Shown here: in pieces, positions 1 to 11,552 of the stretch
Position numbering within the stretch: the first letter of the stretch is position 1
How the letters are laid out: every line of letters starts with the position of its first letter
DNA from: a virus
Lineage: Duplodnaviria; Heunggongvirae; Uroviricota; Caudoviricetes
DNA: 11,552 nt
Virus record (IMG/VR): IMGVR_UViG_2529293041_000008
Direction: 5' to 3' (one strand)
Made by a program: the position numbers and the translations under genes
The notes under the pieces: generated by a model
Database searches by the model: none
What the model was told of the DNA's origin: nothing
What the model saw: only the letters and a program-made list of their open reading frames with translations

Positions 1-2741
<2,741 letters not shown>

Positions 2742-2742
<1 letters not shown>

Positions 2743-5132: not shown

Positions 5133-8100
5133 ATGGGCAAAGGAAGCAGTAAGGGGCATACCCCGCGCGAAGCGAAGGACAACCTGAAGTCCACGCAACT
5201 GCTGAGTGTGATTGATGCCATCAGCGAAGGGCCGATTGACGGTCCGGTGGATGGATTAAAAAGCGTGCTGCTGAACAGTACGCCGGTGCTGGACAGTGAG
5301 GGGAATACCAATATCTCCGGTGTCACGGTGGTGTTCCGGGCTGGTGAGCAGGAGCAGACTCCGCCGGAGGGATTTGAATCCTCCGGCTCCGAGACGGTGC
5401 TGGGTACGGAAGTGAAATACGACACGCCGATCACCCGGACCATCACGTCGGCAAACATTGACCGACTGCGTTTTACCTTCGGTGTGCAGGCACTGGTGGA
5501 AACCACCTCAAAGGGGGACAGGAATCCGTCGGAAGTCCGCCTGCTGGTTCAGATACAACGTAACGGTGGCTGGGTGACGGAAAAAGACATCACCATTAAA
5601 GGCAAAACCACCTCACAGTATCTGGCATCGGTGGTGGTGGGTAACCTGCCGCCGCGCCCGTTCAATATCCGGATGCGCAGGATGACGCCGGACAGCACCA
5701 CAGACCAGCTGCAGAACAAAACGCTCTGGTCGTCATACACCGAAATCATCGATGTGAAACAGTGCTACCCGAACACGGCACTGGTCGGCGTACAGGTGGA
5801 TTCGGAGCAGTTCGGCAGCCAGCAGGTGAGCCGTAATTATCATCTTCGCGGGCGCATTCTGCAGGTGCCGTCGAACTATAACCCGCAGACGCGACAATAC
5901 AGCGGTATCTGGGACGGAACGTTAAAACCGGCATACAGCAACAACATGGCCTGGTGTCTGTGGGATATGCTTACCCATCCGCGCTACGGCATGGGGAAAC
6001 GTCTTGGTGCGGCGGATGTGGATAAATGGGCGCTGTATGTCATCGGCCAGTACTGCGACCAGTCAGTGCCGGACGGCTTTGGCGGCACGGAGCCGCGCAT
6101 CACCTGTAATGCGTACCTGACCACACAGCGCAAGGCGTGGGATGTGCTCAGTGATTTCTGCTCGGCGATGCGCTGTATGCCGGTATGGAACGGGCAAACG
6201 CTGACGTTCGTGCAGGACCGACCGTCGGATAAGGTGTGGACCTATAACCGCAGTAATGTGGTGATGCCGGATGATGGCGCGCCGTTCCGCTACAGCTTCA
6301 GCGCCCTGAAGGACCGCCATAATGCCGTTGAGGTGAACTGGATTGACCCGAACAACGGCTGGGAGACGGCAACAGAGCTTGTGGAGGATACGCAGGCCAT
6401 TGCCCGTTACGGTCGTAACGTCACGAAGATGGATGCTTTTGGCTGTACCAGCCGGGGGCAGGCACACCGCGCCGGGCTGTGGCTGATTAAAACAGAACTG
6501 CTGGAAACGCAGACCGTGGACTTCAGCGTGGGCGCAGAAGGGCTTCGCCATGTGCCGGGCGATGTCATTGAAATCTGTGATGATGACTATGCCGGTATCA
6601 GCATCGGCGGGCGCGTGCTGGCGGTAAACAGCCAGACCCGGACGCTGACGCTCGACCGTGAAATCACGCTGCCATCCTCCGGTACCACGCTGATAAGCTA
6701 GGTTGACGGAAGTGGCAATCCGGTCAGCGTGGAGGTCCAGTCCGTCACCGACGGCGTGAAGGTAAAAGTGAGCCGTGTTCCTGACGGCGTTGCCGGATAC
6801 AGCGTGTGGGGGCTGAAGCTGCCGACGCTGCGCCAGCGCCTGTTCCGCTGCGTGAGTATCCGTGAGAACGACGACGGCACGTATGCCATCACCGCCGTGC
6901 AGCATGTACCGGAAAAAGAAGCCATCGTGGATAACGGGGCGCACTTTGACGGCGACCAGAGCGGCACGGTGAATGGTGTCACGCCGCCAGCGGTGCAGCA
7001 CCTGACTGCCGAAGTCACCGCAGACAGCGGGGAGTATCAGGTACTGGCCCGCTGGGATACGCCGAAGGTGGTGAAGGGCGTGAGTTTCATGCTTCGCCTG
7101 ACCGTGGCAGCGGATGACGGCAGTGAGCGGCTGGTCAGCACAGCCCGGACGGCGGAAACCACATACCGCTTCACACAACTGGCGCTGGGGAACTACAGGC
7201 TGACAGTCCGGGCAGTAAATGCGTGGGGGCAGCAGGGCGATCCGGCATCGGTATCGTTCCGGATTGCCGCACCGGCAGCGCCGTCGCGGATTGAGCTGAC
7301 GCCGGGTTATTTTCAGATCACCGCCACGCCGCATCTTGCGGTTTATGATCCGACGGTACAGTTTGAGTTCTGGTTTTCGGAAAAGCGGATTACCGATATC
7401 AGGCAGGTTGAAACCAGCGCGCGCTATCTTGGCACGGGGATGTACTGGATAGCCGCCAGTATCAATATCAAACCGGGCCATGATTATTACTTTTATATCC
7501 GCAGTGTGAACACCGTTGGCAAATCGGCATTCGTGGAGGCTGTCGGTCAGGCGAGCGATGATGCGGAAGGTTACCTGGATTTTTTCAAAGGCCAGATAAC
7601 CGAATCCCATCTCGGCAAGGAGCTGCTGGAAAAAGTCGAGCTGACGGAGGATAACGCCAGCAAACTGGAGGAGTTTTCGAAAGAGTGGCAGGACGCTAAC
7701 GATAAGTGGAATGCCATGTGGGGCGTCAAAATTGAGCAGACCAAAGACGGCAAACATTATGTCGCGGGTATTGGCCTCAGCATGGAGGACACGGAAGAAG
7801 GCAAGCTGAGCCAGTTTCTGGTTGCCGCTAACCGTATCGCGTTTATTGACCCGGCAAACGGGAATGAAACGCCGATGTTTGTGGCGCAGGGCAATCAGAT
7901 ATTTATGAACGACGTGTTCCTGAAGCGCCTGACGGCCCCGACCATTACCAGTGGTGGAAATCCACCGGCATTTTCCCTGACATCAGACGGAAAGCTGACC
8001 GCTAAAAATGCGGATATCAGTGGCAGAGTGAATGCGAACGCCGGGACGCTCAACAATGTCACGGTAAATGAAAACTGTACGATTAAGGGCATGCTGGAGG

Positions 8101-8546
8101 CGACTCAGGTCAGAGGTGACTTCGTTAAAGCTGTATCCAAATCATTTCCGAAACAGGCTGGTACGTGGGGTAACACGGAAACACCAAACGGGACGGTTAC
8201 AGTCACCATCAGCGATGATCATAACTTTGACCGTCAAATCATTATTCCGCCCATTATCTTTAACGGAATAGCGTATAGCTATCCGGGAAGTGGTAATAAC
8301 CCGGGAGGTACAAGATACACGGGTTATGGTTTTGAAGTTCGCAAAAACGGTGTATTAATCGCATCCAGAGAAACTAAAGGGGCCATTCCCGGTAGCTACA
8401 GTGCGGTTATTGATATGCCGAGTGGCAGGGGAAGCGTCACTCTGGAGTTTAAGGTTTTCCATAAAGGCAATCAGTGGGCAGGTAATATCACCGACTGTAC
8501 GGTGATTGTGACCAAAAAAGCCGCTTCCGGCATCAGTATTCGTTGA
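5133..8546 (+). pseudogene. J: Central tail fibre / host specificity protein J, full length but interrupted by one in-frame amber codon (TAG 6699-6701); ORF-track pieces 5133-6701 and 6729-8546 are the same frame
   Basis: The two pieces are in the same frame and together span about 1136 codons, close to lambda J (1132 aa). N-terminus MGKGSSKGHTPREAKDNLKSTQLLSVIDAISEGPIDG is lambda-J-like. The sequence right after the stop ([29 protein letters not shown]) continues the J protein with no start codon or RBS. The last ~150 aa differ from lambda J as I recall it. Confidence 0.85.
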
Positions 8547-9267: not shown

Positions 9268-9278
9268 GTGAGGTGAAT

Positions 9279-10549
9279 ATGGCAGTAAAGATTTCAGGTG
9301 TACTGAAAGACGGCACAGGAAAACCGGTACAGAACTGCACAATCCAGCTGAAAGCAAAACGTAACAGTACCACTGTGGTGGTGAACGCGCTGGCCTCAGA
9401 AATCCGGATGAAGCCGGGCGTTACAGTATGGACGTTGAGTACGGTCAGTACAGCGTTATTCTGTTGGTGGAGGGATTCCCGCCGTCACATGCCGGGACCA
9501 TCACCGTGTATGAAGATTCTCAACCCGGTACGCTGAATGATTTTCTCGGTGCCATGACGGAGGATGATGCCCGTCCGGAGGCACTGCGACGTTTTGAACT
9601 GATGGTGGAAGAGGTGGCGCGTAACGCTGAGGAGGCGAAGAAGAATGCCGGAGAGGCAGAGACGTCAGCGAGGAATGCGGGTATATCAGCCGGCCAGGCG
9701 GAAAAGAGTGCAGTAAATGCTGAGACTTCTGCAGGGGATGCATCGGAGTCAGCCCGGCAGGCGACGGAAAGTGCAGCCTCAGCAAAGCAGTCAGAGGATG
9801 CGTCCTCGTCCTCGGCTTCTGCGGCCGCTCAAAAAGCCAGTGAGTCATCACAAAGTGCAGCAGAAGCTGAATTGTCAAGAAAGACGGCAGAAAGTGCAGC
9901 CGGTAATGCATCCAGGGATGCAACGACCGCAGCAGAAAAAGCCCGGGAGTCAGCAGAAAGCGCACAGTCAGCGGAACAAAGCAGGATAGCGGCGGAAGAC
10001 GCCGTAAACCGAATCCCCACCGTGGTGGGACCTCCCGGGCCAAAGGGGGAACAGGGGCCCGCGGGTCCTCAGGGGCCGAAGGGTGATAAGGGAGAGCGCG
10101 GTGACACCGGCCCTGTCGGGGCAACCGGCGAACGGGGACCGGCAGGTGATGCTGGTCCGGCAGGCCCGCAGGGGCCGAAAGGTGACAGGGGAGAGCGGGG
10201 AGAGACCGGTCTGACGGGAAATGCAGGTCCACAGGGTCCAAAGGGAGATACCGGTGCGGCAGGCCCACAGGGACCGAAAGGAGAAACAGGTGCGGCTGGC
10301 CCGGTGGGGGCAACCGGACCTCAGGGACCGAAGGGCGACCCGGGGGAGACACAAATCCGTTTTCGTCTGGGGCCGGCGAGCATTATTGAGACAAACAGCA
10401 ATGGCTGGTTCCCGGATACAGATGGCGCACTCATCACCGGACTGACCTTTCTTGACCCCAAAGATGCCACACAGGTTCAGGGGCTGTTTCAGCATTTGCA
10501 GGTCAGGTTTGGTGACGGGCCGTGGCAGGATGTTAAGGGGCGTGGATGA
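9279..10549 (+). pseudogene. stf: Side tail fibre protein (lambda Stf-like N-terminus, Ala/Ser/Glu-rich coiled region, collagen-like repeat, C-terminal globular domain) with a -1 frameshift near codon 40
   Basis: ATG at 9279 is preceded by TGAGGTG. N-terminus [36 protein letters not shown] matches lambda Stf from memory. The frame then drifts into nonsense and stops at 9536, while the neighbouring frame continues with the Stf-like ...[60 protein letters not shown]. The shift is at the A-run in TCAGAAATCC (9396-9405). Confidence 0.75.
10028..10342 (+). repeat. Collagen-like repeat: 35 uninterrupted Gly-X-Y triplets within the tail fibre gene
   Basis: Direct translation: [105 protein letters not shown]. 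Confidence 0.9.
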
Positions 10550-10897: not shown

Positions 10898-11084
10898 TCA
10901 TGTCATGGTGATGTTTGTTAATGAAGGCTTGAGGGAATATTTATCCGTATGAAGGAATATGGTAATGCCTGGATTAATATCATATGTGTCATCGGCTTCA
11001 TCGTGAATGAGATGATGGAGCTGCGTCAGCAGGTAATGGAGGGGCAGATTGGTGGATTTCTCCTGGGAGGGGCTGTCTCTTATA

Positions 11085-11110
11085 CACAAATCCCCACCCG
11101 GGGATTTGTG
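11085..11110. repeat. Perfect 11-bp inverted repeat with 4-nt spacer (CACAAATCCCC-ACCC-GGGGATTTGTG) overlapping the inner part of the IS terminal repeat
   Basis: Arms 11085-11095 and 11100-11110 are exact reverse complements, read directly from the sequence. Confidence 0.8.
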
Positions 11111-11237
11111 ATGTCTGTCAGTCTGCTTTAGGGGGACTCTTTCCATCCGGTAGTTTCCTTCCTCCCCGGCAGCGATTTTTTGAACTTTTTCCTCACCCGT
11201 TGATCTTCTCTTATATTTCATTTTCTTCGGGTCTGTT

Positions 11238-11552
11238 ATGGTACTTTCTGATTGTTATTCATGGGCTAACGAGCAGTTTTGACATGCCCGTCTCGGTGAT
11301 CCGCGTCGTACACGACGCCTTGTGTCACTGGCCTCTTCTCTCGCTCAGCATGCAGGTCTTTCTATTGTGAAATCATCCCAGTCCACTGCTCAGGTTGAAG
11401 GTGCGTACCGCCTGATACGTAACCCGTCTGTGTCCCCGCAAGCCATTGCCGAAGCCGGATTTACCGCCACTGTAAGGGCATGTGAGGCTCATCCGCTGCT
11501 CCTCGCGCTGGAAGACACCACCACCATTAACTTCAGTCACAGTACGGCATCT
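11238..11552 (+). pseudogene. IS50/Tn5-like transposase N-terminal region (3' end outside window), interrupted by an in-frame TGA at codon 15 (11280-11282)
   Basis: MVLSDCYSWANEQF-TGA-HARLGDPRRTRRLVSLASSLAQHAGLSIVKSSQSTAQVEGAYRLIRNPSVSPQAIAEAGFTATVRACEAHPLLLALEDTTTINFSH aligns in frame with the Tn5 Tnp N-terminus as recalled (...DWAKSVFSSAALGDPRRTARLVNVAAQLAKYSGKSITISSEGSKAMQEGAYRFIRNPNVSAEAIRKAG...LLAIEDTTSLSYRH). The TGA falls at a sense position (Ser18 of Tn5 Tnp). Confidence 0.65.

Follow-up and report, generated by a model that had tools for sequence, protein, structure and literature searches.

Transposases of the Tn5/IS50 type act preferentially in cis. ISEc13, an already known insertion sequence (IS) of the IS4 family, is IS50/Tn5-like, and the mentions of it that we found in the literature are limited to survey listings. 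Nonsense mutations in IS transposase genes are ordinary. Functional read-through of UGA is known in E. coli from phage Qbeta A1, and UGA followed by C was reportedly ranked as the weakest terminator of E. coli by Poole, Brown and Tate in 1995 (cited in PMC9841425). Tn5 also makes Inh, an inhibitor of transposition that is devoid of the N-terminal DNA-binding region (PMC2632911).

The window that we analyzed, a stretch of 11,552 nucleotides, represents draft contig AFJB01000002.1 (assembly GCA_000249175.2) in full and ends within a copy of ISEc13. This copy shares the left inverted repeat, start codon and reading frame with the ISEc13 of EPEC O127:H6 E2348/69, and codon 15 of its transposase gene is TGA rather than GGA (Table 1). 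The likeness of ISEc13 to IS50/Tn5 extends to full-length homology, three shared Pfam domains that follow one another identically (with Dimer_Tnp_Tn5 below its cut-off), a left end resembling the outside end, a right end resembling the inside end and a target-site duplication (TSD) of ~9 bp, whereas the sequence identity with Tn5 transposase is only moderate.

The ISEc13 copy and the surrounding prophage

Table 1. Position of the features of the ISEc13 copy and of the neighboring prophage within the window
Feature	Position	Strand	Remarks
IS21-family istB 3' end and IS end	1-398		ORF 39..332; Pfam IstB_IS21, E=3.5e-43
Tape-measure frameshift	~935		1-bp deletion, TT to T, compared to phage cdtI and E. 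coli DCE7
Tape-measure frameshift	~2037		1-bp insertion, G to GG, compared to phage cdtI and E. coli DCE7
In-frame amber TAG	6699-6701		Splits lambda-J-like host-specificity gene (5133..8546) into ORFs of 522 and 605 aa
Remnant of nleG-family T3SS effector gene	10949..11072	+	Interrupted by ISEc13 after codon 36
Target TGGGAGGGG adjoining the IS	11064..11072		Expected target-site duplication; right junction beyond the window
ISEc13, left 480 bp of a 1,550-bp copy	11073..11552	+	Truncated by the end of the draft contig
Left terminal inverted repeat, 19 bp, CTGTCTCTTATACACAAAT	11073..11091	+	Similar to Tn5 outside end
Transposase ATG and first 14 codons, MVLSDCYSWANEQF	11238..11279	+	W9, A10, F14 invariant or nearly so
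UUU-UGA-C created by the mutation	11277..11370	+	+1 frame (ORF 11200..11370) ends at TGA 11368-11370
Opal TGA, codon 15	11280..11282	+	IS position 208, G-to-T, Gly15 to stop; C at 11283
Transposase codons 16-105	11283..11552	+	Open to contig end; Tnp_DNA_bind, Tn5 alignment, conservation
GTG29 (Val29)	11322..11324	+	First possible in-frame restart; no Shine-Dalgarno; caller start of 429-aa product
GTG44 (Val44)	11367..11369	+	Weak, badly spaced AGG 10 nt upstream; caller start of 414-aa product

Over 11073-11552, the window is identical to annotated ISEc13 copies at 479 of 480 bases. When compared to the copy inserted at araH in E2348/69 (WP_000244358.1, 457 aa), the sole difference over the 480 bases is the G-to-T substitution at 11280. 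Because the change from GGA to TGA is all that separates the IS part of the window from an intact annotated copy, TGA stands in for a sense codon, as the initial annotation had proposed. The transposase frame reads MVLSDCYSWANEQF, the stop and then HARLGDPRRTRRLV. Its residues 6-104 align across the stop with residues 9-108 of Tn5 transposase (PDB 1MUH, 3ECP and others; E=1e-24), with codon 15 opposite Tn5 Ser18, and Tnp_DNA_bind is detected in codons 1-105 (Pfam E=9e-17). This domain spans residues 8-65 of the intact protein and the stop falls inside it. Intact ISEc13 copies pass the Pfam cut-offs for Tnp_DNA_bind and DDE_Tnp_1, their Dimer_Tnp_Tn5 match (24.1 bits) is below the cut-off of 26.7, and the intact protein aligns with Tn5 transposase over its full length (E=6e-84). 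Both the assignment of the gene to a Tn5-like transposase and the presence of an in-frame TGA followed by C, with Tn5 alignment on either side, are borne out by these comparisons.

The left inverted repeat of ISEc13 is CTGTCTCTTATACACAA, and full copies elsewhere end on the right with CTGTCTCTTGATCAGATCT, which contains two GATC sites and which we take to be the equivalent of the Tn5 inside end. Other ISEc13 copies have TSDs of 8-10 bp, and the intact nleG target without the IS is visible in O55:H7 CB9615. ISEc13 has a marked preference for small palindromic targets, in which a short TSD of 8-10 bp lies between CCC(T)C and G(A)GGG (flanks of loci L013-L032; window 11055-11072), and the same yccJ site has been taken by ISEc13 in several lineages.

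The contig contains the tail module of a lambdoid prophage, with ~98-99% identity to phage cdtI and with extensive damage. The tape-measure gene of this prophage is cut at 398/399 by an IS21-family element. With an IS21-family end at one edge and ISEc13 at the other, the contig is therefore bounded by ISs on both sides. The two frameshifts break the tape-measure gene into ORFs 532..1005, 1008..2078 and 1993..2742. In the lambda-J-like gene, phage cdtI has CTG (Leu) in place of the amber codon, which implies two adjacent substitutions, and no other contig in the protein collection carries the sequence of the 522-aa fragment. The gene encoding a tail-fibre N-terminal domain (9273-10549) also appears to be frameshifted, with ORFs 9273..9536 and 9428..10549 lying in different frames, while its relatives are one unbroken gene of 437 aa. 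The nleG remnant shows a further 1-nt deletion near codon 12 when compared to O55:H7 CB9615.

Occurrence of the TGA codon in ISEc13

We searched 5,426 complete E. coli genomes, as well as plasmids, using a 61-mer centred on the stop. None of the 1,688 places retrieved from the genomes was 100% identical to the query (best match 60/61), nor was any of the 133 places on plasmids, and the exact TGA-bearing 35-mer returned 0 matches in 185,579 species-representative genomes and in IMG/VR. A pattern with NNN at codon 15 recovered GGA as the sole codon, and all 29-30 ISEc13 copies of E2348/69 are non-TGA. Column 15 holds a sense codon in each of 113 full-length homologs (G62 Q21 S14 H4 A4 L3 Y2 N2 E1), in which the neighboring W9, A10, F14, L19, G20, D21, R23, R24, R27 and L28 are invariant or nearly so. 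Decayed relatives of ISEc13 also keep Gly15 and have stops at codons 68, 240, 248 and ~395. Since nearly all other copies have a sense codon, ISEc13 neither has TGA by design nor conserves it. A relative of ISEc13 with ~96-97% identity is widespread in E. coli (~1,500 genomes); the two copies of it that we inspected (L008 in FDAARGOS_497 and L009 in O157:H7 MB9-1) are decayed, one being an annotated pseudogene with internal stops and the other a split gene.

Further TGA copies were retrieved through the exact look-up of the products that gene callers predict from an early-stop copy, starting either at Val29 (429 aa) or at Val44 (414 aa). Both products are present in a collection of 15 billion proteins. 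The look-up of the 414-aa product recovers all TGA copies and few GGA copies; on the latter, the calls are caller artefacts due to host ORFs fused into the IS. The identical G-to-T substitution at IS position 208, with the rest of the ORF intact, was found in E. coli 2362-75 (ADUL01000074), in a Logan short-read contig from SRR24987651 (locus L012) and at four chromosomal sites of GCA_900448265.1 (UFZD01000005; L013-L016). Overall, the allele is present at no fewer than 6-7 sites in 3-4 related strains and 4 assemblies, including the window and six other loci (L011-L016). GCA_900448265.1 also holds a GGA copy of ISEc13 in tauD.

The lack of matches in complete genomes, plasmids, species representatives and IMG/VR had suggested a mutation private to the window copy, and look-ups with the window junction and with the partial protein returned its own contig as the one match. 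The TGA copies in three other assemblies overturned this suggestion. The initial annotation had also considered a private nonsense mutation: a sense codon is indeed present in nearly all other copies, but an allele found at about 7 sites in 4 assemblies is not private. An error of base calling or assembly near the contig end is ruled out by the same base change in three other assemblies from independent projects. Complete-genome collections alone were misleading in this respect, and the answer changed once draft and long-read assemblies from the relevant lineage were included. As judged from these sequence comparisons, ISEc13 has a real opal nonsense allele, TGA, that is heritable and restricted to a lineage. 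As a proxy for abundance, we compared the contigs indexed for the intact protein (1,261 blocks) with those indexed for the truncated calls (25 blocks and 2 contigs), and estimate that the TGA allele may account for roughly 1-2% of ISEc13 copies at most.

Spread of the TGA allele

Three of the four TGA sites in GCA_900448265.1 (L014, L015 and L016) each have their own TSD of 8-10 bp, and both inverted repeats are intact in L012-L016. None of the 5,426 complete genomes has the junctions of the window copy or those of L015, L016 and L011, whereas the empty flanks of those sites are nearly universal in them. The junction of the GGA copy in tauD is also absent from complete genomes, yet it is common to at least 4 draft assemblies; since it is equally absent, this control does not discriminate between old GGA insertions and new TGA ones. 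Over 1,550 positions, position 208 is the sole difference between the TGA copies and the GGA haplotype of the E2348/69 type, with L012 lying on another background.

The remaining site of GCA_900448265.1, L013, has no TSD and joins a yeh-fimbrial left flank to a yccJ/wrbA right flank. The mismatched flanks and the missing TSD identify it as a recombinant between two ISs. Its yccJ-side junction is identical to E2348/69 at 700 of 700 positions, so that the strain and E2348/69 belong to one EPEC1 clade. The ancestral yccJ copy in E2348/69 is non-TGA and, together with the absence of the TGA junctions from complete genomes, this indicates that the allele arose after the split from O127:H6 E2348/69. 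We also observed that ISEc13 joins the metG/yeh fimbrial region to yccJ-wrbA-rut-putA in this assembly (L013/L034, 364763-386007), and the lack of a TSD at the junction implies that two ISEc13 copies took part in a large rearrangement of the chromosome.

The explanation that ranks first is that the TGA copies, a lineage-restricted opal allele with intact ends, multiplied most likely by means of transposase that GGA copies in the same cell provided in trans, and we give this account about an even chance of being correct. The G-to-T change at IS position 208 would have arisen in an EPEC1-related clade after the split from O127:H6 E2348/69. Translation from the ATG at 11238 would stop after 14 residues, ahead of all conserved DNA-binding residues, and so TGA copies would make essentially no transposase. 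They would behave as non-autonomous passengers whose ends are recognised by the transposase of GGA copies, and the allele would have spread through the transposition of TGA-bearing copies, among them the one in the prophage nleG gene. A minor share of read-through at UGA-C may add to this, with Trp at the tolerant position 15. The TGA copies show the pattern of elements mobilised in trans, namely a defective gene, intact ends and several sites with TSDs, and a GGA helper is seen in GCA_900448265.1. The cis preference of the family speaks against mobilisation in trans, as copies moved in this way should be disadvantaged; yet four TGA copies are found in one genome. In addition, the substitution could be carried from copy to copy by gene conversion or by IS-IS recombination, with no need for transposition. 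Recurrent identical mutation is not a credible source of the TGA copies.

Alternatively, and second in our ranking, the TGA element could be autonomous and attenuated. Low-level read-through of UGA-C by tRNA-Trp would yield a little full-length G15W transposase acting in cis, the stop serving to throttle translation. We consider this unlikely. The presence of TGA copies at several new sites with TSDs is consistent with it, and so are the weakness of UGA-C as a terminator, which the initial annotation had pointed out in agreement with established knowledge, and the Qbeta A1 precedent. The cis preference of Tn5-type enzymes would favor self-made transposase, and the variability of column 15 in the 113 homologs suggests that the substitution may be tolerated. 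The ORF past the stop is also intact in all six full copies, but with a single base of difference the copies are too recent for decay, and the intact ORF is uninformative on autonomy. All homologs lack the stop, as do ~99% of ISEc13 copies, which argues against a conserved regulatory design, and GCA_900448265.1 has a GGA helper in the same genome. We detected no SECIS or other Rfam family at E<=10 in 11000-11552, and the local RNA fold around the stop is unexceptional (z=-1.05), with no sign of a stimulatory structure; selenocysteine insertion or another recoding RNA is thus not supported. The UUU-UGA-C created by the mutation resembles the CUU-UGA-C site of the prfB +1 shift and may be prone to such a shift, which would be unproductive for the transposase because the +1 frame soon ends (Table 1). 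The regulatory read-through envisaged by the initial annotation is possible, with the spread of the allele as its sole positive evidence, but it finds no support in conservation of the stop or in RNA signals. Evolved read-through regulation of the transposase is unlikely, and we found no read-through-regulated bacterial transposase in the literature. A more specific form of this explanation holds that the TGA variant is an autonomous, low-activity ISEc13 lineage, throttled by read-through, that has been the source of new insertions in a sub-clade of EPEC1 and may have arisen twice (TGA on the 873A/1440A background, with GGA at that site in NZ_CM142663.1); it is more doubtful than both read-through as such and the gene conversion considered below.

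The third explanation is that the allele was passed on among IS copies already in place, through gene conversion or homologous recombination as in concerted evolution, and not by transposition. The recombinant L013 shows that IS-IS recombination did occur in that genome. Moreover, L012 and a GGA copy at a DUF6056-gene site in a Thai blood isolate (L045; NZ_CM142663.1 57217-59153) occupy the same site and are identical at 1,936 of 1,937 bases, differing at position 208. L012 thus has TGA on the 873A/1440A background, and all four combinations of alleles at positions 208 and 873 are seen. However, L012 is possibly chimeric, given that it is a short-read contig with a 2-nt left flank unlike that of NZ_CM142663.1, and its TGA could stem from chimerism of the contig, from a mixed sample, from conversion or from a second origin. 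Conversion would also have had to hit position 208 at least five times, at sites that are all lineage-specific, and it is more parsimonious to assume that a single founder allele transposed. For these reasons we judge conversion improbable as the route of the spread.

A further proposal, compatible with the others as an addition to them, is that TGA copies act as inhibitor loci, where re-initiation at GTG29 or GTG44 gives a truncated, Inh-like protein that poisons the transposase of other copies. These are the only in-frame restart candidates within the window, and gene callers do predict the 429- and 414-aa products from TGA copies. The conserved L19, G20, D21, R23, R24, R27 and L28 fall between the stop and GTG29. 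Products from either GTG would lack conserved DNA-binding residues, and that from GTG44 would lack most of the DNA-binding domain, in an Inh-like manner. Tn5 Inh likewise has no N-terminal DNA-binding region, and its structure (PDB 1B7E) aligns from ISEc13 residue 54 onward. The initial annotation had suggested a downstream start as used by Tn5 for Inh; in its homologous form this is not supported, as the position of Tn5 Met56 corresponds to Gln52 (CAG) in ISEc13, and the two GTGs have poor or no ribosome-binding signals (Table 1). The G-to-T change makes a perfect sigma-70 -35 hexamer, TTGACA, at 11279-11284, but the promoter scan detected no promoter-like site on the + strand and no -10 after the hexamer, which rules out a new internal promoter. 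Inhibition would also leave the spread of the TGA copies themselves unexplained, and we regard it as having a small chance of contributing.

Finally, a private inactivating mutation or an error in the window copy would fit a draft contig that ends 270 bp past the stop inside a multi-copy IS, that carries several further gene lesions and whose allele occurs in no complete genome, but it is highly improbable given the same base change at six other sites in three other assemblies.

Relationship to known systems

When compared to Tn5 Inh, any truncation in the TGA copies would come from a nonsense mutation and fortuitous GTG codons, whereas Tn5 uses a dedicated promoter and start. With non-autonomous ISs and MITE-like elements, the TGA copies share intact ends, a defective gene, TSD-flanked insertions at several sites and co-residence with an intact relative; they differ in being full length and a single base away from the autonomous form, and in belonging to a family that prefers to act in cis. 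The UGA in a weak context is common to the Qbeta coat/A1 and prfB systems, but here the stop is not conserved and there is no upstream Shine-Dalgarno stimulator at a prfB-like spacing.

What makes our observation slightly unusual is the presence, at about seven sites, of a full-length element that has an early stop, is one base away from the active form and belongs to a family of cis-acting transposases. If the read-through explanation were true, it would represent a new mode of IS regulation and, to our knowledge, the first bacterial IS with its activity set by stop-codon read-through. The TGA copies of ISEc13 therefore offer a natural test case for how strict cis preference is in multi-copy genomes, and for whether transposition may be sustained by a leaky UGA-C.
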